This document shows, piece after piece, positions 22,901 through 43,143 of a stretch of DNA of 58,357 bases (its first letter is position 1; each line of letters begins with the position of its first letter). The notes under the pieces were generated by a model. The model saw only the letters and a list, made by a program, of their open reading frames with translations, did not search any database and was not told the origin of the DNA. The DNA is from a virus (Duplodnaviria > Caudoviricetes). The translations under genes and the position numbers were made by a program. The stretch spans positions 1-58,357 of the IMG/VR virus record IMGVR_UViG_3300030430_000907; one strand, written 5' to 3'.

Positions 22901-25900
22901 CTTAAGGAAGTTAGTACCTTTAGCTAAAGAAAAAGGTTATACTTTAGAGAGTTTTAATGGTGACTCAAGTTATTTAGCTTATGAAACAGGACAAGAAGGA
23001 ACAAGCGGAAGTGGATATTCCAACGCTCTTGAAAGAGTTAGGAGTAAAAGAGGCGGACTCGAATCATCCAGTTTACAAAGAGCAGCCCTTTCTAATCTTT
23101 ACATCCCTATCTACAAAAAATACGAAAAGTTCGCAAGACAACTAGACGATTTTAATTTACCCCCACCACCATATACCCTACCAGGCAGTGCAGTAGGCAA
23201 TCTTAATAACATAAATTTAAAATCAGCAGAGGCACGTGCAAGAGCAATAAAAGATAGAGAAGACTTATCTCCTACAACAGTTCCAAAATTTAACGAGAAC
23301 GCAAATCCTTTAGCTCTAGCCATAGCTTATGATTATCAAGATGGCAAAATACCAGACGATACTCCACCAAAGATACCTCTTAAATATTCTAGAACAACAA
23401 CTAATGTTCCAGAAAAATATGCAGAAATATCTAAGAAAGTAGGTGAGTCTGAGATAAAAGAAAATAAAACTTTTGGAGCAGCCATACTAGATTCTTTTGC
23501 TTTAACTGATGATGATAGTTCAGTAAATTTTTTAGACAGAATATATAAAGCTTTAGTAGATAGATTAGCTTTCGTTGAAAGAGGAGTTAAACAGTCTGTA
23601 GATATTTTAAATAAACGAGCAGAAGAAGGTGATATTGAGGCAGCAGAAGCACAAAACTGGGCACAAAGTGGAGCTATGCAACAGCTACGTCATACTGATA
23701 AGTCTAATCAAATAGTAGCTCAAGCTATGACAAAAGGACCTCCTGTAATAAAAAGAGGTGACAAAGACCTTGGGATAACAACTACTATAGATTTTAAACA
23801 TGGTGGTCTAGCAGATATTTTTGCACCTTTATATGAAGACCCTAGTCTATTTCAAAATGAACAATATATGGGAGAACAGCTATTTAAAATACTAGCTGTG
23901 GGTTCTAGGTCAGAAACATTAAATGCTCAGGGTATAGAAGTGCCTTTAGATGAAGACATGATAAAGTTAGCACAAGAAATAAGAACTGACTTTCCTGTAG
24001 TTGCACAAGTCTATGATAGATATCAAGAATTTAATGCCAAGGTTATTGAGTTTGCAGTTGAGACTGGCATATTAGAGGGCACTAGAGACCCTGTTGATTT
24101 AGCTAGAGATATTGTTAAAGCTGCTGCGGAAAATGATATCCCTGGATACAAATTTAATTCTTTAAGAGAACTATCTTTAGGAGAGTTATCATCAATAGCT
24201 GGTGATTTAAACTCACAATTACGAGGAACAAAAGGTTTTGAGCCTATAAGAATAAAGTCTCAAGCAGATATGTGGTTAGAAAATTCTAACTATTATCCTT
24301 TCTATAGAAAAATGATAGATGAAACTATAGGAGGACCTAATGTTGCTGCAGGTATACTATCAGGTAATCCATTAAATATTCGTATAAAAGGCAGTAAAGA
24401 AGCATTAGAGCCAGCACCACTGGATGTTATTTTTAGAAACCTTCAAGCAATTACAAATGCTGCTATGAAGAATGAAGGTTTACAAAGATTAATGGAGTTA
24501 CATAGACAAGCAGGCAGGGCAGAACTGGCGACAGCCAATACTCCTATAACTCAAAAAGTTACAGTTTATGAAAATGGTAAGAAAGTAGAGTATCAAGTAG
24601 CTGATGCTTTATTAATAGATGGACTACAGTCTATGAATATGGCAGATGACTCTGGATTTTTAATAGGTTTAGCTGCAGGAGCTTCTAATATATTAAGGGA
24701 GGCAGTTACTAGAGACCCTATCTTTATGGTTAGAAACTTGACTAGAGATAGTTTAGTTTCAAGAGTTATAACAGGCGTTGACTATCTCCCTATAATAGAA
24801 ACATTTAAAAAATTTAATTCTGATATGACTGAATTGGAAAGGCGTGGAATTATAGGTGGTTATGATGCTGCAAGAGACCCAAATGATGCAGGTAAATTTT
24901 TCAGAAAATTAATGAAAAAAAGAAAGCTAGATGAATATGGGTCTTTAAATCCTTTTGATTCTGTAGTACAAATGTGGGATTGGTTAGGAGACCTGACTAC
25001 AGCATCAGATGGTGCAACTAGAAATGTAGTGTACGAAAAAGTTTTAGAGTTAACTGATAGTCAGGCTGAGGCATCTTATCAGGCTCTAGAGATTATGAAC
25101 TTTAACAGAAGAGGTAGTAATCCACTTTTTAAAATTGTTACCGCAGCTATACCTTTCTTAAATGCTAGAATACAAGGTTTAGACGTATTGGCTAGAGCAC
25201 ATAGAGGACATTATTCAGCAGTAAAAAAATTGCAAGGACAGTCTATTGATAGAAAAGAATTAGAGAGTGAAATCTTTATCGGCACTCTAACTAGAGGTAT
25301 GTTTTTAGCTATGGTAACTGCATTGTATTATCTGTTTGTTTCTGATGATGAAGTTTACAAAAATGCAAGAAGAGAAACGAGAGATGATAATTGGTTAATA
25401 CCATTAGGCAGAGATTTACCTGCTCTAAAAGTACCTATACCTTTTGAAGTTGGTGTTTTGTATAAGGTTATACCTGAGAGATTGATTGACTTAACATTTG
25501 GTGATGCTACGTTTGACCAGACTATGAAATCATTGTCAAGGCAGGCGATTGTCACGTTTAAAGCAGACCCTTTAGGATTTCAATTTGTCAAACCTATAGT
25601 TGAAGTTATGAACAACAGGAGTGCTTATTTAGGCACAGATATCATTCCCTTCTATATGAAAGAAGGAGTAACTGCACAAGCACAATACAATGCTAATACT
25701 ACTGAATTTTCCAAAGGTTTAAGTGAGGCGTTAGGAAACGTTGGTATAGATATTGCTCCGATACATTTAGATTACCTTATCACTGGATACACAGGAACTA
25801 TAGGAGTTTATATGTCTGCGGTTGCTGATGCAGTAGCAAAGCAAACTACAGGCGATGAAGTTGTGCCAAGAGATATAGAACGTCTACCTATGTTTAGGTC

Positions 25901-26243
25901 TATCTTGCAGTCTAGAGATGGCGGAGGACTTCTTCAAGAATTTTACGAAATGAGAAAAGAGAGCAATAAATTTATTGGCACAGTCAACAAATTAATTAAA
26001 GAAGGTAAGTCAGACCAACTGAATATGTATTACAACAACCCTGATGGTCTCTTACAAACTAGAGCAGAAATATTAAAGCTAGACAGATACATAGCACATA
26101 TGAGGGATTTAGAGACAAAAATTAGAGCAGACAAAAAAATAACAGGTGAAATGAAAAAGATGTTAATAGATGAAATTAAAGCAGAAAAGCAAAAGAGATT
26201 AGCATATTTTTTACCTGATTTAAGAGACAGGATTACAGGCTAA
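16980..26243 (+). CDS. Giant polyvalent virion protein (zincin HExxH, ART-like, HhH-glycosylase-like and LPD38-like domains)
   Basis: 3087 aa. NHEVIHAL..EEYVAE; VYHITP...PGVFVF; WYER...VIDRHM...QVQALIW; C-terminal IPFLNARIQG, KVPIPFEVG, KPIVEVMNN. Confidence 0.75.
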   Translation: MMARYTLPDGRVLDIDLEQLSSEDKVNLQNWLAETYPDNFDRYIEKDIQGYTAELFKGIPRGGLQTLASSAEGIVNLFDAGNDSEIGNSLRAFQQSLNENKYIGIGEGYEDAFATKLGAGLGSFASFLIPGGLAGKIAGRAGKGLDIAARKSLVQRAQTRGAAAVAVPAGVAEQGRNIERARELGEEVGYGQELVSELLGGAIGYTEVYSIERLLRYLPSGYAPVVNNRLGSAFVLGGMEGLQEATAGLLQDAVARGIYSEELPIGESALDDFTVGGAVGFIADLVLRNRMSGFNSDYVREQEQEARKRREELKFEAKEMFESTPESQTPDVDPRIILPELESNLDTLDANKVFKVKNQAAKVVGDLAVYNNKISNSVTPVKDNFGIDYAEIYLNEVFEKIEDNIRARTDLTEEQRNKLIQGAISSKSKELDDLLQAALDAAPTTAPDEPIQRLNAFNKEPVKEKLEIIDNPNGTFSVVGEESANDYGSVTYPDYNTAAIEMRKIENNIDKDFNTQRIKQALYLQGNYGNGTAAKIGSLVYDNLFNDIPKTFIANLDSTIKPARKTKTDAVKGAQQRINQGIFDDITGERPISEQDIAALNQIIEEGAQGNIPIKARKIQSDSLADNFNKKVEKLGLPIKENYTVAEAKKILNKNDFNDLMAERARVVHKLSVSTGTIFANQRNQDFIDSTIPGIQEILQKKNIETQISDAGFEYFAEQVTGEKKYSKMNQGQKDLLASRLKELPRFDVITKFPDFRPRPYTVKDVNDFYVNNKGKTITNEILKNNIKNRNGKNLSQNDIKILRQDLIDSGRAVVDKNKLKLTFDFELEQARRANGLNESQQEFRERLRNTTALSEEEIASRVQANEGADAATIEEGDLKLLPPPATLEKFERLFEIARGQLNKLGLSDVGLKFSDRLRSAGNLQEVNGKLVFTGATEAGAYDPSLNKIFLSFNSIDPNGTLTEKELESKIAGIMNHEVIHALRELDLLTEREYNLLVTYAKNTLKRIKVLNPEGKEVTLAQDITAKYTGPNTPDLDPVSLDEEYVAELFRVYVANPNDVKGKSKGILKKIVDFFKSILDAITGAGFRTPLGVLEDIKTGKIGKRERGKFRSNKDILAEQVNQNVPVTELKFSIDEDKLRKELDDAASELYTAQSILRAEGNRVSRRNYDAMYKRYQDANNKVIYLESELAKIPKQLSLKFGNVRKTGLPPKYSIDKITPRDPVVVEKKLTQEEKRNILDGEFVYHITPTKNARKIAEEGFNIFADSNYVKAGDGSRYQDSPGVFVFKNPYDAVAFVKRVNWKDEDNFSMIKLRKGNRRYEADKAADFQLYPNFSSNTAEDLGVELNEFSLNQLTRGQEDKSGNLRTTYYVPSLQTPEPFKPEDIVGIVTFPDMEKAFKDPIVDFRQYNNHSEESFNSNLDNPSPFGFAKIIDNLFETREAVEGAVKELNKFSPISPKFSRGTITPIELFGDGKLEQRIQREFLDNNKELTGKQIEDILKDFALKPTPKRKWIGTKELEQSMRDALARGDDPFWYERWADIKDDIGSANINEFSGVFGVTSEQAQPEKNLKDTLRTMIIARRVDPDKNPKKFINELKKANVGNKEPRRLQRILDFYELGILKREETGQKTATYGLEINRAMRNMFTPFSVIDRHMLRKFGIDSEKANQTEYRVMQAIIGNIAKYKGNNFTTKDGTPLNLSLPRQVQALIWADQRYTGPTRISNEGSYEAARRESSQELSEIKLMKQDGSFNSNRPLNGKFIYEPEYSTNIKDDPMSTEVSKDLYNATMNQSPSLAIELKPGVGRGYLPPNPIVNGNPLSFFDYRNFQLDVLKSITDGNQIKFLQDLGISHRVTESAGSYKDGFAVPNLVIQFPNSTATEIKDYGRLLGDAFLQDAVVYFKASTRGRQSTGVMFVKPDNSLLTQTELNDLVRDLKNIDRDFDFTLLAGHKVGPMVLDPKSFLEGQPYDKRQYANFLRKLVPLAKEKGYTLESFNGDSSYLAYETGQEGTSGSGYSNALERVRSKRGGLESSSLQRAALSNLYIPIYKKYEKFARQLDDFNLPPPPYTLPGSAVGNLNNINLKSAEARARAIKDREDLSPTTVPKFNENANPLALAIAYDYQDGKIPDDTPPKIPLKYSRTTTNVPEKYAEISKKVGESEIKENKTFGAAILDSFALTDDDSSVNFLDRIYKALVDRLAFVERGVKQSVDILNKRAEEGDIEAAEAQNWAQSGAMQQLRHTDKSNQIVAQAMTKGPPVIKRGDKDLGITTTIDFKHGGLADIFAPLYEDPSLFQNEQYMGEQLFKILAVGSRSETLNAQGIEVPLDEDMIKLAQEIRTDFPVVAQVYDRYQEFNAKVIEFAVETGILEGTRDPVDLARDIVKAAAENDIPGYKFNSLRELSLGELSSIAGDLNSQLRGTKGFEPIRIKSQADMWLENSNYYPFYRKMIDETIGGPNVAAGILSGNPLNIRIKGSKEALEPAPLDVIFRNLQAITNAAMKNEGLQRLMELHRQAGRAELATANTPITQKVTVYENGKKVEYQVADALLIDGLQSMNMADDSGFLIGLAAGASNILREAVTRDPIFMVRNLTRDSLVSRVITGVDYLPIIETFKKFNSDMTELERRGIIGGYDAARDPNDAGKFFRKLMKKRKLDEYGSLNPFDSVVQMWDWLGDLTTASDGATRNVVYEKVLELTDSQAEASYQALEIMNFNRRGSNPLFKIVTAAIPFLNARIQGLDVLARAHRGHYSAVKKLQGQSIDRKELESEIFIGTLTRGMFLAMVTALYYLFVSDDEVYKNARRETRDDNWLIPLGRDLPALKVPIPFEVGVLYKVIPERLIDLTFGDATFDQTMKSLSRQAIVTFKADPLGFQFVKPIVEVMNNRSAYLGTDIIPFYMKEGVTAQAQYNANTTEFSKGLSEALGNVGIDIAPIHLDYLITGYTGTIGVYMSAVADAVAKQTTGDEVVPRDIERLPMFRSILQSRDGGGLLQEFYEMRKESNKFIGTVNKLIKEGKSDQLNMYYNNPDGLLQTRAEILKLDRYIAHMRDLETKIRADKKITGEMKKMLIDEIKAEKQKRLAYFLPDLRDRITG

Positions 26244-26885: not shown

Positions 26886-26918
26886 GCAAAAGAACATACA
26901 CCAGTGAATATTCTTTGC
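26886..26918. promoter_or_regulatory. Copy of dispersed 22-bp palindrome (GAAYATWCAC-YR-GTGAATATTC)
   Basis: GCAAAAGAACATACACCAGTGAATATTCTTTGC, intergenic. Confidence 0.7.
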
Positions 26919-28717: not shown

Positions 28718-28745
28718 AAAGAAAATACACCAGTGAATATTCTTT
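28718..28745. promoter_or_regulatory. Copy of dispersed palindrome
   Basis: AAAGAAAATACACCAGTGAATATTCTTT, intergenic. Confidence 0.7.
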
Positions 28746-30688: not shown

Positions 30689-31535
30689 AGTAATTTCCTG
30701 TGCATCTTATACACTCACCAAGTGAATGTTCAATGCTCAAGTCCGCACTGGTGTCACTATTTACACAATACTTTTTCGCATCATTCATAGAGTCAAAGAC
30801 TCGCAATGCAGTCTTCCTACCCTTTTTCATTACACGAAAAGTATCATTTCTTTTCCACCTCTCTGCATCATTGCAAAGCGGAGGCTCTTCCCCCATCTGC
30901 TTAAGCACTTCTGCTTGCTGATGAAGGTTGACTCTGTGTTCTATAAATTCTTCTTGTTTTTCTGTTGACCACAAAGGTATCTTGATAGTGGTTATCATTG
31001 ACTCAGGGTAATCTCCACCTCTTCTTTGTAGTTCTCTTTTGTTCCAATCTCTTGCCAACGCAATGATATTACACTGGTGAATATTCTCTCCAGTATTTTT
31101 CCAATACAACCATGCGTAACAGTTGAGTTGTTGTTCCCATTCTGATTTGCCATCTTTCAATGCATTGATAATTGTCCACACTGAAGTAACTTTCAAATCC
31201 TTTAATGTGTTGTCTGCTAGAGAAAGGGTGTCTGTCTGTCCGCTTATAGTCCATCCTGATACATCTGCAAATAGCCTTTGCTCAGTTATGGTATCTTCAT
31301 AGCTTTCGTTGGCTCGTTCCATAATAGTGTGTATGCTCTGCCCTAGTATCTTCCATACTTCATCAGAGTAATCTGAAGTTATCTTATCTTTATTTATATC
31401 TTGCAAGACTCTAATCCTCGGTGGTTGTATTAGACCTGTCACAGAGATATCAGCATTACCTTTTGTGTAATCGTCATTCTCTATTGCTCTAATAATTTCC
31501 ACAGGTATGTTGTACTTGTTTGTATACTTAGGCAT
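30639..31535 (-). CDS. PD-(D/E)XK exonuclease (Cas4/RecB-like)
   Basis: G.SIH, EQRL, SGQTD, DLKVT, QLNCY and C-terminal Cys cluster. Confidence 0.82.
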   Translation of the reverse strand: MPKYTNKYNIPVEIIRAIENDDYTKGNADISVTGLIQPPRIRVLQDINKDKITSDYSDEVWKILGQSIHTIMERANESYEDTITEQRLFADVSGWTISGQTDTLSLADNTLKDLKVTSVWTIINALKDGKSEWEQQLNCYAWLYWKNTGENIHQCNIIALARDWNKRELQRRGGDYPESMITTIKIPLWSTEKQEEFIEHRVNLHQQAEVLKQMGEEPPLCNDAERWKRNDTFRVMKKGRKTALRVFDSMNDAKKYCVNSDTSADLSIEHSLGECIRCTGNYCGVAEFCNQFSEDVNE

Positions 31536-32734: not shown

Positions 32735-34480
32735 ATGATTGTCAATACTGAAATTGAAAATGTAGCGAGGAGATTAAACGTAGGTCAGCACAAAGTAAAA
32801 TGTCCTTTGTGTCAAGACCAAAGAAGTAAACATAAAGGAGACAAGCCTTTATCTTTGAATATAGAAAGTGATAAGGTTGTGTTTAATTGTCACCATTGTG
32901 GAGAGAACGGAGTAGTATTTAACGATAACAAAGCAGTGTCTGTAAATGGAAAGAAAGCACCGAAGAATGTGTTGAAGTCTGTGCCTGAGAATAATGAGAC
33001 AGGCAAAAGTGCAAGTTATCTTGAGTCGAGAGGCATAGATATAGAAGTGGCAAATCGGTCTGGTGTTTTGTGCGTTGATAAAGAATATTCACCAGTGATA
33101 GGTTTTAAGTTTGCTTCAGACGATAAGGTTGAGGCTATTAAGTACAGAAGTGCAGATGATAGTAAAAAGTTTTGGTGGGAAGGAACTGCTCACAAACTGT
33201 GGGGTCAAAGTTATAAAGATGAAAACCTAAAAAGCCTAGACGATACAGTGGTAATTACTGAGGGTGAGATAGATGCTTTAAGTATACTCACTGCTTTCAA
33301 AGACTATGCTAACTTAGATGTTTACTCTGTACCGAATGGTGCACCATCCAAGATTACAGATAATAAAGTAGATGCCTCAGAAGATGGAAGGTTTAAATAC
33401 GTTTGGGAAGACCGAGAAAAATTTGAGAACAAAGAGAGAATAATACTTGCTACTGATAGCGATGTATCAGGAGATGCTTTAGCTGATGAACTCTCAAGAA
33501 GAATGAACAAGGCTAAATGTTATAGGGTAGATTACAAGGGATGTAAAGATAGTAATGAACTTCTTTTACAAGATGGTGCAGAAGAACTTCGCAAACAAGT
33601 CTTGTCAGCAGAGCCAATACCTTTACATGGTTTAAATAATATAGACCACTACTCAGAGGATTTTCAAAGCTTGTATGACAAGGGTATGCCGAGTGGTATC
33701 TCCACAGGTTTTGCCAGTGTAGATGAACTTTTTACTTTGGCTACAGGAAACTTGTACGTAGTGAGTGGTCATGCAGGTGATGGCAAGAGTGCTTTCATAG
33801 ACCAACTGGTAGTGAACATGGGTAAGAACTATGGATGGAAAACTTGTTTCTGTTCTTTCGAGAAACCACCACAACTTCATGCAGTACAACTCAGTCAGAT
33901 ATTATCAGGCAAACCTTTCTTCGAGGGTCTTAATACAAGAATGACTCAAGAGCAAAAGGATGATGCTGAAACTTGGATTAGAGAACACATACTCTTTCAA
34001 GATTACATAGATGGAGATATGCCTACGATAGAAAAGATACTAGAGAAAGGAGCAAGTGCAGTGATGCGGAAGGGAGTTAGGGTTTTAGTTATCGACCCAT
34101 TCAACTTTATACAAACAGATAAGCAGTATGCATTAGAAACAGATATGGTTTCGGATATGCTTACCAAAGTGCAACTGTTCGCAAAACAACATTCTGTGTT
34201 AGTCTTCTTTGTTGCCCACCCCACAAAGCCGATTATCAGGGATGGTAAGAAGAACGTCATTACTGGTGTCGATATAGCTAAGTCTTATGCTTGGTTTAGT
34301 AAATGCGATACAGGTATTACAGTTTATCGAGGGCAAGAAGGTGTAGAAATACATAACTGGAAACAACGTTGGGGATGGCATGGTAAAACAGGTCATGTTA
34401 TCATGGACTACAATCCTATTAATGGTAGGTTTTTAGAGGCAGAAGACAGAGAAGATGACTTCGATTGGGAATTTGAATAA
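32735..34480 (+). CDS. Primase-helicase (T7 gp4/Twinkle-like)
   Basis: Zn finger CPLC/CHHC, TOPRIM ITEGEIDAL and DSD, Walker A GHAGDGKS, VIDP, VAHP. Confidence 0.92.
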   Translation: MIVNTEIENVARRLNVGQHKVKCPLCQDQRSKHKGDKPLSLNIESDKVVFNCHHCGENGVVFNDNKAVSVNGKKAPKNVLKSVPENNETGKSASYLESRGIDIEVANRSGVLCVDKEYSPVIGFKFASDDKVEAIKYRSADDSKKFWWEGTAHKLWGQSYKDENLKSLDDTVVITEGEIDALSILTAFKDYANLDVYSVPNGAPSKITDNKVDASEDGRFKYVWEDREKFENKERIILATDSDVSGDALADELSRRMNKAKCYRVDYKGCKDSNELLLQDGAEELRKQVLSAEPIPLHGLNNIDHYSEDFQSLYDKGMPSGISTGFASVDELFTLATGNLYVVSGHAGDGKSAFIDQLVVNMGKNYGWKTCFCSFEKPPQLHAVQLSQILSGKPFFEGLNTRMTQEQKDDAETWIREHILFQDYIDGDMPTIEKILEKGASAVMRKGVRVLVIDPFNFIQTDKQYALETDMVSDMLTKVQLFAKQHSVLVFFVAHPTKPIIRDGKKNVITGVDIAKSYAWFSKCDTGITVYRGQEGVEIHNWKQRWGWHGKTGHVIMDYNPINGRFLEAEDREDDFDWEFE

Positions 34481-35430: not shown

Positions 35431-35449
35431 AGTCCATTGTGGGCAAAGA

Positions 35450-35898
35450 GGACTAGCCTTCGATTAACAAGTTTGACAAGGAATAAATAAAAAAAATCAG
35501 TCAAACTCTTCCCTAAGAGTCAGACAGATTGTCAGTCTTATTATGGAGGTCATACAACTATACGACTAGAAGGTATGACTATGAAATACAAAAAAATGAT
35601 TACACTACTTTTTTGGTATGACAATCTGTCTAACAATAATTAGGTAGTCGCATGATGGTTTCTAACACTTATTTGCATTTCATCCTTGACTTCCCTCGTC
35701 ACTCCATATCCCCGAATTAAATCTAGGATTTATAATGGTGCAGACTTCAAGATTTTATAAAGGCTCATTACCTACCTAAACTAAAAGCAAGGCGTTGTTC
35801 ATATGCTTTTTAATCTACTGACAACCTAATGTCTTCAATCTCAAGCAAACGAGGATTTATACTTTAATACCTATCCTGTTCTCCGATAACCTTACAAC
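35450..35898 (-). ncRNA. Putative structured ncRNA locus
   Basis: No long ORF, upstream promoter, several inverted repeats (e.g. AGACAGATTGTCA/TGACAATCTGTCT). Confidence 0.4.
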
Positions 35899-35904
35899 AG
35901 TATT

Positions 35905-35932
35905 AGTATACACATTGATAGCATTTTGCCAA
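35905..35932 (-). promoter_or_regulatory. Possible sigma70-type promoter
   Basis: TTGGCA-16-TATACT, overlapping a GATAGCATTTTGC motif. Confidence 0.45.
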
Positions 35933-35999
35933 ACAATTTCCTGAAGAAGATGGAAGAATTTTTCAGGCTGGGATGAATATATTTTGTCAGCCTACAAAT

Positions 36000-36023
36000 A
36001 AACATACACTGGTGAATATTCTC
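36000..36023. promoter_or_regulatory. Copy of dispersed palindrome
   Basis: AAACATACACTGGTGAATATTCTC, intergenic. Confidence 0.65.
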
Positions 36024-36077
36024 TTGATATAGAGCTTCAGTTCAGGTAAAATTTATGGAGTAAATTTTATTTTGAAC

Positions 36078-36114
36078 AAAAAAAAAGGCGGTGACTACCG
36101 AAGTAATCACCGCC
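36078..36114 (-). terminator. Rho-independent terminator ending the early operon
   Basis: GGCGGUGAUUAC-UUCG-GUAGUCACCGCC followed by U9. Confidence 0.93.
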
Positions 36115-36141
36115 TAAACACAACCTCAAGTCACATTAGAT

Positions 36142-36807
36142 TTATAGAACTACAACCTTCTCGCTATACTCTTTATCCCAAATAATATTGCTACAAACAT
36201 TTTGATAATGCTTTCCTAATATCATTTGATTAGCAAGACAAATTACAGGGTCTGAGTAAGACAACATCTTCTCAGGTTTTAGTAATGAGTATCTGACAAT
36301 CTTGTCAGCAGATATCATTCCTTCGTGGCAACAAGTACCTAAAAGAGCAAGGCTTTTCTCATAGAACATTCTATTCTTTGAGTCCATGTGGAACTCATAA
36401 AGATTATCTTTAAACCACAACGTTCTATCTTCCATACTCATTTCAGAAAATCCTATAGGAAAATCACTGTGCCAGTTTGCGATATCCAAGTCACCCAATT
36501 CGTAACTGTCAGCATACTTAGAATTATTTACTTGTTCTAAAGCATCTTCGTCAGGAAATAAATTCATCATGCTTTCTTCATCAAATTTTATTTCCAAGAC
36601 TACAGGCTTATCATCATCATCTTCTAAGCTTGCAAGACTATAATAAGGTGCATAAGAATTAGTTAAGTAAACCATATTGTCATGCGACTCATTATCATCC
36701 CAGTTACTTTTACCACTAAGTCTTCTTGGCATAATTCCATCTTTCAGTATTGACTCAAGCTTGCTAAGGCTTGTGCCATGATAGAGTAATAAATATTCAC
36801 TAGTCAT
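36142..36807 (-). CDS. NAD-binding ADP-ribosyltransferase-fold protein (Tpt1/KptA-like N-terminus)
   Basis: LYHGTS...SILKDGIMP...VYLT...VVLEI. Confidence 0.6.
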   Translation of the reverse strand: MTSEYLLLYHGTSLSKLESILKDGIMPRRLSGKSNWDDNESHDNMVYLTNSYAPYYSLASLEDDDDKPVVLEIKFDEESMMNLFPDEDALEQVNNSKYADSYELGDLDIANWHSDFPIGFSEMSMEDRTLWFKDNLYEFHMDSKNRMFYEKSLALLGTCCHEGMISADKIVRYSLLKPEKMLSYSDPVICLANQMILGKHYQNVCSNIIWDKEYSEKVVVL

Positions 36808-36810
36808 ATT

Positions 36811-37008
36811 TTATTCCCCCACAATCTCGATAATTTTTTTCAAGACTTCTTTGTAGGCACATATGTTACCTTCACAATACCAACTCTCGTCACGACTATC
36901 AGACTGACCGAGAGCAATCTCAGTAACGTGTATTTGGTTATCAACCCAACCCGCTAAAAGTTTCAGCTTGGTTTCTTTTTTAACAACACTAGCCATAATA
37001 AACATCAC
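36811..37008 (-). CDS. Hypothetical protein
   Basis: GGAGG SD. Confidence 0.6.
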   Translation of the reverse strand: MMFIMASVVKKETKLKLLAGWVDNQIHVTEIALGQSDSRDESWYCEGNICAYKEVLKKIIEIVGE

Positions 37009-37171
37009 CTCCTAGTGAAAGCATAACTAAAAATAATACTGCAAATCCGCCAACAATTATGACACTGCTAACGACATAATAAATACACTCTAAAACGAAA
37101 GCGATTTCGTCAGAGTACTTCTCGATAAAATCTCTTGTAGGAGATTTTCTTCTTTCCCAAAAATTTCTCAT
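36989..37171 (-). CDS. Small membrane protein
   Basis: GGAGG SD just after the ribozyme; long hydrophobic helix. Confidence 0.65.
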   Translation of the reverse strand: MRNFWERRKSPTRDFIEKYSDEIAFVLECIYYVVSSVIIVGGFAVLFLVMLSLGGDVYYG

Positions 37172-37196
37172 ATTACCTCCATGATTTTTTTGGTTA

Positions 37197-37252
37197 TCTG
37201 TTTCGACCCTTTTGGGTCTTCATCAGTAGGAAATACACATTTCCTAGACAGA
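37197..37252 (-). ncRNA. Hammerhead ribozyme, type III (HHR-A)
   Basis: UCUG-UC-UAGGAAAU(GUGU)AUUUCCUA-CUGAUGA-A-GACCC(AAAA)GGGUC-GAAA-CAGA; GUC cut predicted at 37247/37246. Confidence 0.92.
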
Positions 37253-37307
37253 ACTCTAAAAAACGAGGCTCTAATTTAGCCTCTAACGAAAAGTTTAGGG
37301 GTAAGCA

Positions 37308-37339
37308 AGGGTAAGGCATACCTAAATATGCCCTACCCT
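37308..37339 (-). other. Stable RNA hairpin after the vWA gene
   Basis: 13-bp stem whose A/C mismatch becomes G-U on the minus strand; no U-tract. Confidence 0.6.
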
Positions 37340-37350
37340 CATAGCTTAAA

Positions 37351-38739
37351 CTAGTAAGCATCACTAGTATCTACGTAAATCAACTCACCGAAAGGTATGT
37401 CTTCCCTTTCTCTAGACTCGTTTCTGTAGACCCACTTAGAAGTGATACCCCAAAAGACAGGGATATCAGGCTCTAAGTCTTCATCCACGTAACACTCACC
37501 ATCAGTGAAATATATCAAGGCATCAATATCTTCATCATCAGTGAAGTCATTAAGAAGATTAAACACTGGGTCAAACTCTGTACCACCTCTGCCACGAAAC
37601 TTCATATCGATAGTCTCGCCACTGGCAATATCAAATCTATCCCACCATTCATCAGTCTCAGGATTTTTACGAACTGTAGTATCGCAATAACAAACTAAGA
37701 CTTCATCAATACCTATCTGCTCACAGATTGATTGAACTTCTGCTCCAAAGTAATTCAACTCATGCTGACTTACTGAACATGAAGTATCAACTGCAATAGC
37801 AATTTTCTTGATGCGAGGCTCTCGCATTTTGCTAGGCAAGTTAAGACCACTCCACTGATATCTGCGGTGAGGTCTAGACCAAGTAGTATCATTAGAGATA
37901 TCGGTAGACAACAAATCAGTAAGGATATCGACCCAGTTAGTTTGAGCCTCCTTAATTTGTGTCAGCCTATCTGAGACACCGCTTGTGCCATCGCCACTCA
38001 TACGTTGCATCATATCGCCCAACTGCATTGCTCTCTGAACATCAGACTCTATCTCTTGGATATCTTGCTCAGATAGAGCCTCACCATCCTCACCAGTAGG
38101 CATTATGATTTCTCCTTGAGATACAGGGATAGCATCATACTTATCTGTGCCATCTTCTGCATCTTGCTGTGAGTCATCAGTAGAAGAATATTCACCAGTG
38201 TCATTTCTTTCCGACTCGTCAGAGCCATCAGAATTTCCACTGTCATTTTCTTCCGAGTCAGAGTCACCATTCTCTTCCTTCATTTGATTGATAGCATCTT
38301 GAAGAGCATCATCATCATTATCAAGAATGTGATAGATTTTCTCTGCGGTCATGTGGTCGTACTTTTCATCCCACAAACCACCTTCGGGCAATTCAAAGTC
38401 TGTGTGGTCATAGATGTAATTGTTGATAGCATAATCACAGGCTATGTTCCACAACTTGTGATTTCTGTTACCCATCCTAGTGTGATGTAAAAGTATGACG
38501 TGGTAGCCCTCATGTAGAAGAACACCTTCACACTCTGCACCAGTAATCTTTAAAACAAAATCATCAGAGTATTTGATAACTTTGCCATCGGTACACATAG
38601 TCTCGATACTATTGTCGCTGACTAGAGGCAGACGTAGAAGTATCGAAGATATTCCTACGTCTTTTCTCATGCATCTAGCTAGAGCATTTTGTATTTTTGT
38701 TCTAGCTAATTCTGATTTATCTGTGACAACACTAGTCAT
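37351..38739 (-). CDS. DUF2201-type metallopeptidase plus vWA domain protein
   Basis: GGAGGTG SD; TMCTDG, LLHEGYH, WNIACDYAIN; vWA motifs VDTSCS, GRGGTEF, YFTDG. Confidence 0.88.
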   Translation of the reverse strand: MTSVVTDKSELARTKIQNALARCMRKDVGISSILLRLPLVSDNSIETMCTDGKVIKYSDDFVLKITGAECEGVLLHEGYHVILLHHTRMGNRNHKLWNIACDYAINNYIYDHTDFELPEGGLWDEKYDHMTAEKIYHILDNDDDALQDAINQMKEENGDSDSEENDSGNSDGSDESERNDTGEYSSTDDSQQDAEDGTDKYDAIPVSQGEIIMPTGEDGEALSEQDIQEIESDVQRAMQLGDMMQRMSGDGTSGVSDRLTQIKEAQTNWVDILTDLLSTDISNDTTWSRPHRRYQWSGLNLPSKMREPRIKKIAIAVDTSCSVSQHELNYFGAEVQSICEQIGIDEVLVCYCDTTVRKNPETDEWWDRFDIASGETIDMKFRGRGGTEFDPVFNLLNDFTDDEDIDALIYFTDGECYVDEDLEPDIPVFWGITSKWVYRNESREREDIPFGELIYVDTSDAY

Positions 38740-39721
38740 TTTCACCTCCCTTGAAGGCATCAAAGAAACCTGACTTAACAGGGTCAATGGCATCACTGAT
38801 ATCTTGAGCAACTTCTTTCCTAGCCTTATCAGACTTATCATCATCTGCTCTAATATCATCTACAGAATTTAACTTAACAATAACACCCATAAGCTTTTGG
38901 TGAGCCTGAGTAATGGTCTTATCATTACCGCATATAGCCTCATTAAAAGTAGGCAGTAATCCCACTGTATCCTTGAACAAATTCACAGACCCATCCTTGA
39001 AGAAACCGCCCTTCCTTTTATTCTTAGGGTCATAGTTTTTTAACTTCTCGGATAAGTGTTCACTTTGCTCAATCAGGTTATCGACTAACTGCTGAACACA
39101 AGCTTTAGAGTTAGACTCTTGTAGCCTAGTAACGTCAGCCTTCATCTTCTTAACAAGACTAGATGATGCTTTAACTCTGACATCATCTATGGAAGTAGCA
39201 TCAGGCACTTGAGCAGTAGACCACTCAAAACGAAACTTACTTCGAATATCATCAAGGTCAGGATAATCATCCTCGTCAAAAGCATCACCAAGAACTTCTT
39301 TTGCTCTCTCAATAAGCTTAGGATAGTCTCTGATAAAACCATCAACTTCTTTCCAAAAAGTAGTCTGAGATTTCTCCATTGCCTCGTTCAATTTATCCCA
39401 GTGTTTGTTAGGACATAATCTCCAACCACTGACGAGTCTTCCCTCGTAGTGGTCAAAGCTTGTATCAGACCAAGGCAGAGTAAACTCCTTCATAGGCTTT
39501 CTCAAAGTATCAACACAAGACTTCCATTGTTTCTTGTGGTCACTACCTACGAGATACTTTTGCACATTGAATGAACTACTCTGAGCCTCGTAGTCTTCAG
39601 CGAGAGTTTGACGTAACTTAGGGTCACTTTTAATGCCACTCCAAGTCTTAGTCTCAAGACGTACCAAGGTACAATTTTGTGCTATTGCACTAACGTTTTT
39701 ATCTTTATTTTTATTGGTCAT
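38732..39721 (-). CDS. DUF3150-like protein
   Basis: TLPWSD, F...YP, LGDAFDEDDYP...IRSKFRF; lies between the AAA and vWA genes. Confidence 0.65.
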   Translation of the reverse strand: MTNKNKDKNVSAIAQNCTLVRLETKTWSGIKSDPKLRQTLAEDYEAQSSSFNVQKYLVGSDHKKQWKSCVDTLRKPMKEFTLPWSDTSFDHYEGRLVSGWRLCPNKHWDKLNEAMEKSQTTFWKEVDGFIRDYPKLIERAKEVLGDAFDEDDYPDLDDIRSKFRFEWSTAQVPDATSIDDVRVKASSSLVKKMKADVTRLQESNSKACVQQLVDNLIEQSEHLSEKLKNYDPKNKRKGGFFKDGSVNLFKDTVGLLPTFNEAICGNDKTITQAHQKLMGVIVKLNSVDDIRADDDKSDKARKEVAQDISDAIDPVKSGFFDAFKGGEND

Positions 39722-40806
39722 TTTTCCTCCTTACCAAAATCAAATTCAACGTTAACGTTATCTACTTTGAACTGAGAATATGTCTCAGTCTCAATCAACT
39801 CTTCTCTTCTTGTGACTAATTGTTTCACAAAGAAGATTGAGAACTCAGGGCTAGCACTTTGCTTTACATAGGCTAGAGCATTGTCAAAGTATGCATAAAC
39901 ATCTTTGTCTTTAGCAGACAATATTCTCTGTGTTAAACCAACACAAAGAGCATACATAAGACCGCCATTGCCCTCTTCAATTTCAACCTCCTTACCATCA
40001 AGAATATCTTGTAGGTTTGGAAGGTCTTCACTGAGCCTAACGAAGTTAGAAAACTCTATGGCATTTTCTTCACCTATTGTGGTGCAACCAAAGTCTTCCC
40101 ATAACTTTTTGTCAGCAACTTTTATTGCATTGCTAAAGTTAGTCCAAGTCCTTGGAGAACTTTGCGGAGCAATAATTTTTGGGTCAAACATATTTAGTCT
40201 CTCAGGGAACTGCTCAATAAATGCACAGACCCAAGGTGAGACATCATTCTTTGTAGCCCAAGCTAACCAGTCATTAGCACTATGCTCAAAGTCAATAGTG
40301 AATACTCTACCGATAAGGTGACTAGGCACTTTAGAACTGCCTGCCCTATCCTCGGCTCTGTTACCTGCAACAACGACTTTCCATCCATCAGGCAACTTGT
40401 ACTCACCAAGTCTTCTTTCATAAAGCAACTGTCCACTGGCAGTTTGCAAACCTAAGTTTGCCTGAGCAATTTCATCCAAGAATAAAATGCCCTCACCACC
40501 TGTAGGTAAGTTACCTAGAAATGCTCTCTTTTGTTCACCAGTATCTTGATTGATATATGGCAAACCACTTAAGTCAATCGACTCGTAGTAAGAGAGTCTA
40601 AAATCAATAAACCCAAACTCTTTTTTGTTTGGATTAATTGCATCTTCGCCTTCAACAATCTTGCGACCTTTTGCAAGTGTCTCAGCTATATCTCGAACAA
40701 CTGCTGATTTACCAACACCTGTTCCTCCACGAAAGAATGGCACATTGCCAATCTGTAAAATAGTAAGAGCCAATTCCTTAGCCTTACTTGGTATAAATGA
40801 TTTCAT
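39718..40806 (-). CDS. MoxR-like AAA+ ATPase
   Basis: GGTGVGKS, DLSGLP, ILFLDE, VVAGNR, SPRTW. Confidence 0.9.
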   Translation of the reverse strand: MKSFIPSKAKELALTILQIGNVPFFRGGTGVGKSAVVRDIAETLAKGRKIVEGEDAINPNKKEFGFIDFRLSYYESIDLSGLPYINQDTGEQKRAFLGNLPTGGEGILFLDEIAQANLGLQTASGQLLYERRLGEYKLPDGWKVVVAGNRAEDRAGSSKVPSHLIGRVFTIDFEHSANDWLAWATKNDVSPWVCAFIEQFPERLNMFDPKIIAPQSSPRTWTNFSNAIKVADKKLWEDFGCTTIGEENAIEFSNFVRLSEDLPNLQDILDGKEVEIEEGNGGLMYALCVGLTQRILSAKDKDVYAYFDNALAYVKQSASPEFSIFFVKQLVTRREELIETETYSQFKVDNVNVEFDFGKEEK

Positions 40807-40825
40807 ATTTCATTTCTCCATAGTT

Positions 40826-40877
40826 ACCGATTTCATGCTTTTGCAATCATCAGACAGGGCGACACCCTGTTATCGAT
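40826..40877 (-). ncRNA. Hammerhead ribozyme, type III (HHR-B)
   Basis: AUCGA-UA-ACAGGGU(GUC)GCCCUGU-CUGAUGA-UUGC(AAAA)GCAU-GAAA-UCGGU; cut predicted at 40871/40870. Confidence 0.88.
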
Positions 40878-40879
40878 AA

Positions 40880-40903
40880 AAGAATATTCACTGGTGAATG
40901 TTT
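40880..40903. promoter_or_regulatory. Copy of dispersed palindrome, between hairpin and HHR-B
   Basis: AAGAATATTCACTGGTGAATGTTT; absent from the otherwise homologous HHR-C cassette. Confidence 0.7.
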
Positions 40904-40925
40904 GTGGGCAGATTTCTCTGCCCAC
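40904..40925 (-). repeat. GNRA-capped hairpin, copy 1
   Basis: GUGGGCAGA-GAAA-UCUGCCCAC, identical to 41301-41322. Confidence 0.85.
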
Positions 40926-40932
40926 CATCCTC

Positions 40933-41223
40933 CTAGTTTTGAATTGCAGATATGAATTCTTCCTTGAACTTCCTTGCTTGACCCATCATTTCTAGTAATG
41001 CCCATTCCTTAGCATCCTTGAAATCTACAACTGTGAGCCAGTTATGATGAACATAAAAATCATCATGCAATCCACGAACAGTGACATCATAGCCATACTT
41101 TCTGTCATAGCTTATGACCGCCTCTGTTGTTCCGAATGGACACTTGGCAGACCATTGTCCAAACTTATAAGTTTTCTCACCAACTTCCTTGGCATCATCG
41201 TTCCATACTAATTTATATTTCAT
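40933..41223 (-). CDS. Hypothetical early protein (between HHR-C and HHR-B)
   Basis: AGGAGG SD; 96 aa. Confidence 0.75.
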   Translation of the reverse strand: MKYKLVWNDDAKEVGEKTYKFGQWSAKCPFGTTEAVISYDRKYGYDVTVRGLHDDFYVHHNWLTVVDFKDAKEWALLEMMGQARKFKEEFISAIQN

Positions 41224-41247
41224 ATTTCCTCCTTGAAAAAATTAGTT

Positions 41248-41300
41248 ACCGATTTCATGCTTTCGCAATCGTCAGACAGAGTACACACTCTGTTATCGGT
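41248..41300 (-). ncRNA. Hammerhead ribozyme, type III (HHR-C)
   Basis: ACCGA-UA-ACAGAGU(GUGU)ACUCUGU-CUGACGA-UUGC(GAAA)GCAU-GAAA-UCGGU; cut predicted at 41294/41293. Confidence 0.9.
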
Positions 41301-41322
41301 GTGGGCAGATTTCTCTGCCCAC
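41301..41322 (-). repeat. GNRA-capped hairpin, copy 2
   Basis: Identical to 40904-40925; abuts HHR-C. Confidence 0.85.
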
Positions 41323-41331
41323 CATCCTCCC

Positions 41332-41709
41332 TCATAAAGTTATTCTAAATTTATCTTCGTTGTAGAAACTTCTGCTAACAAAAACTTTGATAAGTTTGTC
41401 GTTATAGACGTCACTAAAATTAGAAATAATTTCCTTTGCGGTTTTTTTAGTTAAGTCAACTCTGACACTGAAAGCATGAGGATAATATCTATCGTTCTTT
41501 AGACTTTCTTCATCATAACCACCAAGTGATGTAGATAAAGCAATATTTCTACATCTTCGTGATTTTACAATCTGACTTAATTCATCAGTGGTGACATAAA
41601 TGTGACCATAAGTAACAGTTTCTAACTGCTCAGGATTATCTCCATAGCCCTTTGGCTCTTGCCTCTTAGCTATAGCATCTTCGATTTTCTTCTTTAGTAA
41701 TGTTTTCAT
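41332..41709 (-). CDS. Hypothetical early protein (between HHR-D and HHR-C)
   Basis: GGAGG SD before ATG 41709 (MKTLLKKK). Confidence 0.75.
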   Translation of the reverse strand: MKTLLKKKIEDAIAKRQEPKGYGDNPEQLETVTYGHIYVTTDELSQIVKSRRCRNIALSTSLGGYDEESLKNDRYYPHAFSVRVDLTKKTAKEIISNFSDVYNDKLIKVFVSRSFYNEDKFRITL

Positions 41710-41734
41710 AATTTCCTCCATAAAAAACATTGGC

Positions 41735-41830
41735 AATCATCATCAGTTATCTACCGCCACGTAGATAAGACAACGTTAATTTGAAACATTGTTCTACGTA
41801 GAACAAAATGCAATCAACGAGGTTTCGATT
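41735..41830 (-). ncRNA. Hammerhead ribozyme, type II, with extended stem III and loop-I pseudoknot (HHR-D)
   Basis: AAUC-GAAA-C...long stem III...G-UC-UUAUCUAC(GUGGCG)GUAGAUAA-CUGAUGA-U-GAUU-GCCA; cut predicted at 41769/41768. Confidence 0.75.
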
Positions 41831-42207
41831 TAATTATCAACTGTCTGTTGGGAAACAGACGTGATGTGACTTGAGGCAACCCATCCCGAAGTAAAGCAAT
41901 CCCTTGCAAAGTGTAGTTTGTGTTGGCAAACATACACCCTTCATTTAAGAACAGGTCTAGGTCGTTTTCATGGCTATCGAAGAACTGGGGAGAACTTCTA
42001 CTAGCAACAGTCTGTTTGTGTTGATACTCTACCGAGCAACAAACTGACTGAACGCAGAACACACATAAGGTTGACTGTCACAGTCATACCTATCGAGGCG
42101 GTCTGTATATCTATTATTGAGTAAGAGAGATATTGATATTTCACTCCCATACCTTGTGGTGCAAGGCTGATTTGCTTGTTGTTTTCTGTGTCGTATATTT
42201 CCTCCAT
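41831..42207 (-). ncRNA. Putative large structured leader RNA
   Basis: At least seven hairpins in series between the promoter and HHR-D. Confidence 0.55.
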
Positions 42208-42213
42208 GTGTTT

Positions 42214-42242
42214 AATATAAGGGCAACAGGAAAATAATGCAA
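42214..42242 (-). promoter_or_regulatory. Sigma70-type promoter of the early operon
   Basis: TTGCAT-17-TATATT; start site near 42207. Confidence 0.65.
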
Positions 42243-42289
42243 CATTTAATTCAACACTAAAATGTATATCAATATGTGAGCATAGATAA

Positions 42290-42310
42290 AAGAACATTCA
42301 CTGGTTAAAA
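42290..42310. promoter_or_regulatory. Partial copy of dispersed palindrome in the divergent control region
   Basis: AAGAACATTCACTGGT; shares the GATAAAAG flank with the 40880 copy. Confidence 0.55.
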
Positions 42311-42343
42311 TTTAATCATGTACATCGACTGCAGGCACACAAT

Positions 42344-42784
42344 ATGGAAAAGAAATTAACAATAAAGCAAAGGGCATTTGTAGACGAGATTATCAAGGGC
42401 AAGGTAGGTAGTTATCAGGATGCATATATCAAAGTCTATGATGTGGCTCTAACCAAGACTGGGAAAGTACCTAAGTGGGTCAGGAATGAGGCTAGTAAGT
42501 TGGTAGCCAACCCTAGCATCACAATGGCAATCCAGAGAGGTCTGGAGAAGAAGGAACAGACAGTAGTGGCATCTGCAGTCAAGACCAAGCAATACGTCAT
42601 AGATAGGCTTTACAAGGAGAGTATAGAGTCTGATAGCGATGCAAGTAGAGTTAGAGCCTTGGAACTTTTGGGAAAAAGTGTGTCTCTGTTCACTGATGTA
42701 GTAGAGAACAAGGAGGCGAGGAGCAGTACAGAAATAGAGGCTGAACTAGAAGAGAGGATTGAGCAACTACTAACAAAGCATTGA
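42344..42784 (+). CDS. terS: Terminase small subunit
   Basis: LTIKQRAFV, AY..VY, ASKL..NP.I, RVRALELLGK...LF; upstream of terL. Confidence 0.88.
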   Translation: MEKKLTIKQRAFVDEIIKGKVGSYQDAYIKVYDVALTKTGKVPKWVRNEASKLVANPSITMAIQRGLEKKEQTVVASAVKTKQYVIDRLYKESIESDSDASRVRALELLGKSVSLFTDVVENKEARSSTEIEAELEERIEQLLTKH

Positions 42785-43143
42785 TTAAAAAATAACCAAC
42801 TACCACCCTATAAATAAGACTCGCATTTACTGACCCCACCCCCCGCAAACGCCTGCAGGCAGACAGACATACATACATAGTGTTTTACTCATTCTAATAC
42901 TAGATTTGATAGACCCCCTACCCCCTATTTTGCAGAAAAAGACCCTAGGAATCCTAAGCCTCTAAAAATTTTATATCATTTTATGTTGACTTTTCGTGTG
43001 AAGAGACCGATTATTGTATAATCTGTAGATACTTATACCTATCTAGTAGGTACATACTGTAAGTTAGTGACCACATATAGGTAACTACGTAAATTTTTTA
43101 CCGAGTATCTACAAAGTATTTGGTTACTACATATGTAGTATGT

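Follow-up and report, generated by a model that had tools for sequence, protein, structure and literature searches.

Four hammerhead ribozyme motifs ahead of ribosome-binding sites in a marine phage gene block, and a possible self-cutting transcript

Introduction

Hammerhead ribozymes leave 5'-OH and 2',3'-cyclic phosphate ends when they cleave, and RNA that starts with a 5'-OH is a poor substrate for 5'-monophosphate-dependent decay, in which RNase E senses the 5'-monophosphate. The early transcript of phage T7 is cut by host RNase III at double-stranded sites, which gives 5'-phosphate and 3'-OH ends, and RiboJ is an engineered hammerhead of satellite tobacco ringspot virus (sTRSV) placed before a ribosome-binding site (RBS), with an added downstream hairpin. 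The present work concerns four hammerhead motifs in the minus-strand gene block of an uncultured marine virus (Duplodnaviria; Caudoviricetes), IMG/VR record IMGVR_UViG_3300030430_000907. The record is 58,357 bp long and 99% complete, i.e. complete or nearly so, and the whole of it is referred to here as the window.

The closest described systems are those of Perreault et al. (2011, PLoS Comput Biol, PMC3088659), passages of which describe prophages whose single genes or short gene blocks are flanked by several hammerheads, propose that these process long phage transcripts into gene-length mRNAs, and demonstrate cleavage in vitro for three tandem arrangements and in vivo, in E. coli, for one. 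Other passages of that paper give U10.1-U11.1 as a natural, cleavage-competent variant that supports more cleavage than any other mismatch, and a loop I/3'-tail pseudoknot of 4 bp as present in most type II hammerheads. The same source reports the HHphage ribozyme of haloviruses HF1 and HF2, which lies 13 nt before the start codon of the first open reading frame (ORF) of an early polycistronic transcript and has a mapped 5' end at most 3 nt from the cut site. The relevant part of a 2019 review (PMC6765202) still describes the purpose of bacterial and phage hammerheads as open, and a passage of a 2026 paper treats the hammerheads of DNA bacteriophages as already described.

Like the prophage clusters, the window has co-oriented hammerheads of mixed types in intergenic spacers flanking genes and gene blocks, and passages of Perreault et al. 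(2011) also note U10.1-U11.1 and weak stems, both of which occur here, as natural variants. The examples given there come from prophages of cultured bacteria (Agrobacterium, Azorhizobium, Clostridium and Legionella), whereas the window is the record of an uncultured marine virus, and cleavage was assayed there and is predicted here. A regular spacing of hairpin, ribozyme and Shine-Dalgarno (SD) sequence, as seen in the family of the window sites, is not stated in the passages of that paper drawn on here. The HHphage ribozyme of HF1 and HF2, as far as the same passages describe it, is more distant, having an archaeal host and a salt-dependent core variant with insertions near C3, and being a single ribozyme rather than an array. 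RiboJ resembles the type III sites of the window in that everything 5' would be removed while the ribozyme stays on the mRNA as a 5' structure, a functional analogy and not a family relation. Processing by RNase III in T7 resembles the model proposed here in that cuts between the cistrons turn a polycistronic early phage RNA into stable, hairpin-ended units; unlike in T7, the cut would be RNA-catalysed and independent of the host, with 5'-OH and cyclic phosphate ends. The original prediction, which was made on the window itself, held that no operon-wide array of this kind had been described, and this fails because Perreault et al. (2011), already in the passages drawn on here, describe such arrays, the processing role and cleavage. 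The arrangement, the processing idea and the U.U variant are thus in print, and no new principle is put forward.

Results

Three type III hammerheads on the minus strand

A type III descriptor (CUGANGA, GAAA, UH and three stems, the U and the H being demanded by the descriptor) was applied to both strands of the window and matched exactly three places, all on the minus strand: 41248-41300 (hammerhead 2), 40824-40879 (hammerhead 3) and 37197-37252 (hammerhead 4). There was no match in any of 100 dinucleotide-preserving shuffles, and a stricter earlier descriptor found sites 2 and 3 where 0.05 matches were expected per shuffle. In all three the RNA reads, in order, 5' strand of stem III, U-H, stem I hairpin, CUGAYGA, stem II hairpin, GAAA and 3' strand of stem III, and all three carry CUGAYGA, GAAA and the A15.1-U16.1 pair that make up the core of RF00008, together with a cleavage triplet of the form NUH. 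The triplet is AUA at site 2 (predicted cut 41294/93) and at site 3 (40871/70) and GUC at site 4 (37247/46). These sites and cuts, with those of hammerhead 1 below, are the ones that the original prediction had proposed for four co-oriented minus-strand hammerheads, the sole difference being the extent of site 3, which had been put at 40826-40877. Minimum free energy (MFE) and centroid folds both give the hammerhead three-way junction at sites 2, 3 and 4, with z-scores of -2.35, -2.38 and -3.09 respectively. Hammerhead 3 is a paralogue of hammerhead 2 and differs from it by a compensatory A-U to G-C change in stem I and, in stem III, by G-U in place of G-C.

The sites depart from the textbook hammerhead at the closing pair of stem II, where G10.1-C11.1 is absent from sites 2 and 3 and present at site 4 only after an extra A that follows A9. 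Stem II of sites 2 and 3 is U-UGC-RAAA-GCA-U (at site 2 the U.U is followed by UGC/GCA with a GAAA loop), and hence positions 10.1 and 11.1 form a U.U mismatch. Neither of these two sites has an Rfam match even at E<=10 (searches of 1071 nt and 75 nt), because stem II opens with the U10.1-U11.1 mismatch instead of G-C. The mismatch is no bar to membership, because Perreault et al. (2011) list U10.1-U11.1 as natural and active in the passages concerned. Site 4 is matched by RF00008 with 33.0 bits against a gathering score of 48.5 (121-nt search, E 6.2e-6). A search of 35500-43000 against Rfam at E<=10 gave 13 matches with no ribozyme among them. Another RF00008 match, at 38193-38245 inside the VWA gene (14.3 bits, E 0.14), was taken as chance; the same genome search missed the 33-bit site 4.

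Hammerhead 1 is of type II

The fourth motif, hammerhead 1, lies at 41735-41830 on the minus strand, with a predicted cut at 41769/68. It is of type II with stem II open: the RNA reads AAUC, GAAA, a long imperfect stem III hairpin, GUC with the cut, an 8-bp stem I hairpin, CUGAUGA, an extra U and GAUU. Stem II is formed by GAUU/AAUC after the one extra U, and stem III consists of 2 bp, a 2x2 mismatch and then at least 8 bp. The core is complete, and the topology, with stems I and III capped and stem II open, is that of RF02276. An initial doubt about the site, based on the lack of GAAA after stem II, was lifted once it was read as type II. Loop I (UGGC) can pair with GCCA at 41734-41731, directly 3' of stem II, which gives a pseudoknot of at least 4 bp. 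With a relaxed type II descriptor 41735-41830 was the sole match in the window; 3 of 300 shuffles gave any match and 0 of 300 gave one with a pseudoknot of at least 4 bp.

Strain L125, which is 98.9% identical to the window, supplies a second copy of site 1, and all 30 gap positions between the two sequences fall in peripheral parts of this hammerhead. The L125 copy keeps the core, stem I, stem II and the pseudoknot, has a 23-nt shorter hairpin as the tip of stem III, and carries two compensatory changes in the retained stem III helix (G.U to G-C and A-U to G-C). It scores 34.4 bits on RF02276 (E 6.5e-6; gathering score 37), and its loop I and 3' tail align to the conserved UGG and GCCaA of the RF02276 consensus. 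On balance site 1 is very probably a real ribozyme, if less certainly so than sites 2, 3 and 4. The comparison with Rfam hammerhead models that the original prediction had called for came out in part: the window sites agree with RF00008 and RF02276 in core, three-way junction and cleavage-site rule, and site 1 in the pseudoknot consensus of RF02276, and both site 4 and the L125 copy of site 1 are matched, but these scores lie below gathering (33.0 against 48.5 and 34.4 against 37) and sites 2 and 3 are unmatched.

The type III sites belong to a family in uncultured viral contigs

The 23-nt core plus stem II of sites 2 and 3 was used as a fishing pattern and brought up at least 120 IMG/VR contig stretches. 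Among the matches listed there were 127 in these loci, of which 83 were distinct with their flanks. An alignment of 79 rows was made from 77 distinct relatives' copies with full flanks and the 2 window copies, two aberrant copies from L040 being left out. Stems I and III are absent from the fishing pattern and therefore offer a fair test of covariation. Across the 79 rows stem I was paired in 100% of cells with compensatory double changes at 6/6 pairs, and stem III was paired in 96% of cells with compensatory changes at 5/6 pairs. The covariation score was 0.772, compared with 0.219 for column shuffles (0 of 500 reached 0.772) and at most 0.095 with the partners slid by 1-3 columns, so that the covariation in relatives on which the original prediction had staked itself was found. 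None of the 13 core nucleotides varies among the 79 members, whose stems covary, although the fishing pattern itself had fixed the core. Nor does core invariance in the 62 members that lie outside the pattern give independent support, because the descriptor also demanded the core.

A covariance model (R1) was built from the 79-row alignment and run on both strands of the window with filters off. Sites 2 and 3, both of them training sequences, scored 77.3 and 69.7 bits, and the sole other significant match was site 4, which was outside the training set (32.9 bits, E 2.2e-6); the next best match had 11.8 bits (E 1.8). Site 4 has the loop I (UGUGUA) and loop II (AAAA) of the family, and its homologue in the syntenic relative L123 scores 44.7 bits on R1, with compensatory changes in stems I and III. 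Among the relatives, 100 loci gave 198 matches to R1 and 24 further sources gave another 42.

The variation within the family is orderly. Of the 62 members outside the pattern, 33 close stem II with U.U, 15 with G-C and 4 with G.U, while in the others a bulge precedes G-C (a U in 8, an A in 2); the inner pairs of stem II covary (UGC, UCC, CUC, UGG, UAC, CGC and others). The cleavage triplets (n=133) are GUA in 59, AUA in 43, GUC in 20, GUU in 6, CUA in 3 and AUC in 2. Loop I has GUGU in 71 of 133 members and loop II is RAAA, conservation which suggests a tertiary contact that would be needed solely for catalysis. From this evidence sites 2, 3 and 4 are almost certainly real ribozymes.

The exact 23-nt pattern is rare outside viruses: in bacteria and archaea it was found in 4 stretches (one genome each of 185,579 species), namely two from Flavobacterium, one from a gammaproteobacterial metagenome-assembled genome (MAG) and one from a Nodularia MAG. 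A blastn search of site 2 against GenBank phage records returned 17 records at chance level (query cover at most 32%, E 2-6, inside annotated coding sequences), and no cultured phage with the site 2 subfamily was found by this search. Fourteen ribozyme-rich loci of relatives, 139 kb in all, gave 0 Rfam matches at the gathering threshold.

Ribozymes lie just ahead of ribosome-binding sites

Every window ribozyme sits in an intergenic spacer and is co-oriented with the genes of the minus strand. The gap from ribozyme to a strong SD (GGAGG or GGAG) is 15 nt at site 1 (11 nt from the pseudoknot), 15 nt at site 2, 4 nt at site 3 and 16 nt at site 4, which bears out the predicted limit of about 20 nt. 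The four sites delimit four sets of minus-strand genes, i.e. several hammerheads flank genes on the coding strand. Hammerhead 1 is followed by p125 (41332-41709; 125 aa, no family match), the first cistron 3' of it, and p96 (40933-41223; 96 aa, no family match) lies between hammerheads 2 and 3. Hammerhead 3 is followed by a trio made up of an AAA ATPase (39718-40806; phrog_1297), a DUF3150-like protein (38732-39721) and a DUF2201 metallopeptidase/VWA protein (37351 to ~38739), and hammerhead 4 by p60-p65-p221 (36142-37171), which are a 60-aa membrane-like protein, a protein of ~61-65 aa and a 221-aa protein (phrog_13493). The genes of the ATPase-DUF3150-VWA trio (37351-40806) are translationally coupled, with overlapping stop and start codons (ATGA, ATGACTAG).

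The same placement holds in the relatives, as the original prediction had anticipated. An SD with a start codon (ORF of at least 40 aa) lies at most 60 nt away in 149/163 unique members compared with 89/815 random same-strand positions, and the distance from the 3' end of stem III to the start has a median of 28 nt (5th-95th percentiles 20-36 nt). On the other side a GC hairpin (at least 6 bp, at least 3 of them G-C) ends at most 19 nt before the cut in 88/165 members, with a mode of 5-7 nt, compared with 47/825 controls, and just 3 of those 88 hairpins have a U-rich tail. The common module is a hairpin without a U-tract, a ribozyme, a short spacer and an SD, in which cleavage instead of termination would make the hairpin-ended 3' end while the polymerase runs on. 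A crude test placed 27 of the 163 ribozymes of relatives within a long frame free of stops, in some cases perhaps because the descriptor or the test itself gave a false positive.

Arrays are common. Among the matches listed the type III descriptor found 206 ribozymes in 120 relatives' loci (1.07 Mb), where one shuffle of all loci gave 1, and 66 of the 120 loci had at least two matches, on a single strand in 66/66. With R1 the maximum was five per locus (e.g. L022, L021 and L116, the last with five within 2.9 kb). The 128 non-redundant proteins encoded downstream fall into 71 clusters, and 31 of the proteins are homologues of the trio (ATPase 11, DUF3150 16, VWA 4).

Locus L123 is syntenic with the window at 70-74% DNA identity, with proteins 39-50% identical. 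Its hammerheads precede the DUF3150 and VWA genes and two further genes, and by eye a type I-like hammerhead was seen before its ATPase gene (L123:7890-7990, minus strand). In this one stem I is open (ACCAA/UUGGU), U.U closes stem II, stem III is a hairpin of 8 bp and the cut would follow UUA, and the phage group therefore has all three hammerhead topologies. Each trio gene thus has its own ribozyme in L123 (4186-7881), whereas in the window the coupled trio has a single ribozyme in front. Placement before an RBS is thus conserved as a rule, but the junctions used are not. The contig X3, from DNA of a closer relative, retains sites 3 and 4, and its homology to the window ends exactly at 40933, 40934-41907 being lacking, a break at the end of a hairpin repeat (see below) which hints that ribozyme modules are cassette boundaries. 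A second cassette swap in the block is seen in the same relative at 36823-37006, where 182 nt (most of the ~61-65-aa gene) are exchanged for 219 unrelated letters.

Hairpins, palindromes and transcription signals around the ribozymes

Two of the spacers contain an exact 31-nt repeat on the minus strand (41300-41330 and 40903-40933, 100% identical), made up of an SD-like GGAGGAUGG and a 9-bp GC hairpin, GUGGGCAGA-GAAA-UCUGCCCAC, without a U-tract. It follows the stop codons of two unrelated small genes, directly so in the case of the 96-aa gene (second copy), and lies ahead of a hammerhead each time. The hairpin of the first copy ends 7 nt before the predicted cut of hammerhead 2 and would form the 3'-terminal hairpin of the product upstream of that site. 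Ahead of hammerhead 4 there is instead a terminator-like hairpin, GAGGCUAAAUUAGAGCCUC followed by GUUUUUU (37258-37283, minus strand; stem 37283-37265), 12 nt upstream of the ribozyme.

Between the hairpin repeat and hammerhead 3 lies a 28-bp palindrome (AAAGAAyATTCACCAGTGAATATTCTTT, 40879-40907), of which the genome has about eight copies: 8 matches were found against 2.06 expected, and 1 of 100 shuffles reached 8. The matches (14180-14193, 26896-26909, 28725-28738, 31069-31082, 33087-33100, 36004-36017, 40886-40899 and 42296-42309) fall for the most part within or close to intergenic stretches of the minus-strand block and in the divergent terminase/early region. The palindrome may be an operator or a phage-specific promoter element. 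The idea that the palindromes are hairpin promoters of a virion RNA polymerase was rejected, as the 3087-aa protein of the phage matches only LPD38 and phrog_18222, without a polymerase signal.

The original prediction placed all four ribozymes in a putative early operon, between one promoter and one terminator. Its promoter (42214-42242, minus strand; TTGCAT, 17 nt, TATATT) agrees with the consensus at just 8/12 positions and is absent from the list of our promoter scan, in which a sigma-70 search gave 16 promoter-like sites in total, fewer than in shuffles (mean 21.9). Its terminator is real, being a strong intrinsic one that closes the block (36078-36115, minus strand; 13-bp stem from 36115 to 36086, T8 tail), but the terminator-like hairpin at 37283-37265 is a second one inside the block. 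A single promoter and a single terminator are not established, because the promoter is weak, a terminator-like hairpin precedes site 4 and there are copies of the palindrome. Beyond the strong terminator ~640 nt (35447-36085) before the next minus-strand gene have no ORF of 45 aa or more, one palindrome copy and no Rfam match; they could hold a promoter region or a non-coding RNA.

The remainder of the record

The phage nature of the record is clear from matches to terminase, primase/helicase, Sak and exonuclease (Pfam and PHROGs). On the plus strand, genes extend from the small terminase subunit (42344) across the record end to ~26243 and include the 3087-aa protein (16980-26243; C-terminal LPD38 domain, a large polyvalent protein, and phrog_18222). 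The minus-strand block runs from ~42300 to 26233 and has the Sak annealing protein and the exonuclease, with the primase/helicase inside the block on the plus strand; the ribozyme region is the first 6 kb of it, adjoining the terminase genes. A blastn search of 6.4 kb of this region found no match among 50,697 GenBank phage records, and a search for related loci with the ATPase protein brought up nothing but a fragment of the same phage. Repeats elsewhere in the record comprise ~25 tandem copies of a 12-nt unit (17 overlapping copies in a 105-nt register) at 13277-13573 inside an 833-aa gene, where they encode a 4-residue protein repeat, three 48-nt tandem copies at 52743-52886, and a 300-nt direct repeat of 88% identity near both record ends (454-753 and 57776-58075), which may be a diverged terminal repeat or a duplicated gene segment.

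Sequencing runs were also consulted. Five of 13 contained any of the stretch and four of these were mapped; seawater and marine metagenome runs contain parts of the ribozyme region. Eight contigs of 151-271 nt came from X1 and X2, which derive from a single seawater metatranscriptome sample; they fall within 38413-40811, inside the genes for the ATPase, the DUF3150-like protein and the VWA protein. Three short pieces came from X6.

Discussion

The minus-strand block carries four hammerheads with the motifs, covariation and placement described above, and on balance we think it probable that its transcript cuts itself into separate messages, the cleavage, the co-transcription and the protection of the ends being what we infer from them. 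Each ribozyme would fold as RNA polymerase passes and the RNA would cut itself at 41769/68, 41294/93, 40871/70 and 37247/46, so that each downstream piece starts with a 5'-OH. At the type III sites the folded ribozyme (stem I, core and stem II) would remain as a cap-like 5' structure 4-16 nt ahead of the SD. The upstream pieces would end in a 2',3'-cyclic phosphate a few nt after a stable hairpin, which would be stem III at site 1, the hairpin without a U-tract at site 2 and the terminator-like hairpin at site 4. The products would be p125, p96, ATPase-DUF3150-VWA and p60-p65-p221, with stability and translation independent of their neighbours and of host RNases. The fragment sizes given in the original prediction (~440, 475, 423, 3624 and ~1170 nt) are arithmetically right and hold only if transcription runs from ~42207 to 36080. 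The first of them is a leader (41770-42207) ahead of hammerhead 1, which would be released after cleavage as a separate RNA with the long stem III hairpin as its 3' end. This leader contains ORFs at 42001-42297 (68-98 aa) and 41814-42062 (82 aa) without an SD or an assigned family, and in the X3 relative it has indels of -2, -1 and +1.

Several observations weigh against this reading. At the level of the motifs, the whole window has 0 matches at the Rfam gathering threshold. The window copy of site 1 has no Rfam match, including in the RF02276 search, presumably because the tip of its stem III is 23 nt longer; only 2 bp of stem III stand next to the core before the conserved 2x2 mismatch, and the MFE fold of site 1 in isolation differs from the hammerhead fold. 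Site 4 has its extra A after A9, a feature known from a viroid hammerhead. At the level of the transcript, the block may give rise to several RNAs, given the terminator-like hairpin ahead of site 4 and the palindrome ahead of site 3, and the eleven short contig records from the sequencing runs, whose libraries may contain DNA, neither span a cut site nor end at one. The ribozyme positions also differ between the window and L123, and therefore no particular junction can be essential.

The likeliest alternative is that active ribozymes each trim the short 5' leader of a transcript from a nearby internal promoter, yielding uniform, structure-capped mRNAs with a 5'-OH and acting as natural insulators in the 5' untranslated region. 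The excess of palindromes (8 against 2.06 expected), with copies before site 3 and at 42296-42309, speaks for such promoters, as do the terminator-like hairpin just before site 4 and TTsAC-nn-GTsAA-TATT motifs that were seen by eye before three L123 hammerheads and before one each in L006 and L070. However, the 38 nt from the p125 stop to the site 2 cut are filled by the hairpin and a gap of 12 nt separates the terminator-like stem from hammerhead 4, and there is therefore no room for promoters at sites 2 and 4. As the promoter role of the palindrome is itself a candidate one and the sigma-70 scan fell below shuffles, we regard leader trimming as unlikely.

It is less likely still that the motifs are structural elements or relics with little or no cleavage in vivo, which might serve as stabilising 5' hairpins, pause sites, recombination boundaries or conditional switches. 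The non-canonical features would suit such elements (U.U at 10.1/11.1 in sites 2 and 3, the extra A in site 4, the weak proximal stem III and extra U in site 1), as would the failure of any site to reach a Rfam gathering score, and Perreault et al. (2011) note in one passage that some phage variants are slow and possibly regulated. On the other hand the same source, in the part that deals with mismatches, reports U.U as the most active of them, 13/13 core nucleotides are invariant in 79/79 members with covarying stems (a core that the fishing pattern had fixed), and the conserved loop I GUGU (71/133) and loop II RAAA suggest a tertiary contact needed only for catalysis.

The segments between two hammerheads (p125, 475 nt; p96, 423 nt) might finally be excised with 5'-OH and 2',3'-cyclic phosphate ends and circularised into exonuclease-proof mRNAs, either by hammerhead reversal or by a ligase of the RtcB type. 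In stem III the 5' strand from site 3 can form 8 bp with the 3' strand from site 2, a match as good as that between cognate strands, and chimeric stems of at least 4 bp are possible in 46/72 adjacent pairs against 45% of random between-locus pairs, but this small enrichment is explicable by within-genome paralogy as stem III has just two sequence classes, no ligase gene was found among the 16 proteins scanned against Pfam and PHROGs (most proteins of the genome lying outside that scan), and circular or spliced products were sought by Perreault et al. (2011) and, according to a passage that refers to data not shown, none were found, all of which makes circularisation very improbable.

Self-processing of a longer transcript is the reading we retain, and any novelty would lie in its detail: what may be new is the quantitative picture of hairpin, ribozyme and SD in uncultured marine phages, the link to the ATPase-DUF3150-VWA trio and a family that Rfam misses. 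A literature search found no paper on hammerhead arrays of marine phages or on a hairpin-ribozyme-SD module; the supplements of Perreault et al. (2011), which lay outside the search, may contain the subfamily. The comparative set consists of 133 unique ribozymes with gene context together with one clean example in the window, and it sharpens the hypothesis, a cut being predicted 5-7 nt after a hairpin without a U-tract and ~28 nt before a start codon.

We tentatively propose, as a possibility that goes beyond this one block, that a GC hairpin without a U-tract, a hammerhead, some 10-30 nt and an SD with its start codon form a widespread modular 'RNA punctuation mark' of uncultured marine phages which replaces terminator plus promoter, is mobile, comes in three topologies, is centred on the ATPase-DUF3150-VWA trio and is missed by Rfam. 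That the module might move freely between junctions is suggested because the positions differ in 70%-identical relatives and because the homology of X3 breaks at a module. With the curated thresholds of Rfam 15 there are 0 matches in the window and 0 in the 139 kb of relatives, and routine phage annotation would therefore miss a very common regulatory element. If the proposal is true, a single element would give the upstream message a 3' end of 2',3'-cyclic phosphate protected by a hairpin and the downstream message a 5'-OH end capped by a ribozyme, with the polymerase unstopped and host RNases unneeded.

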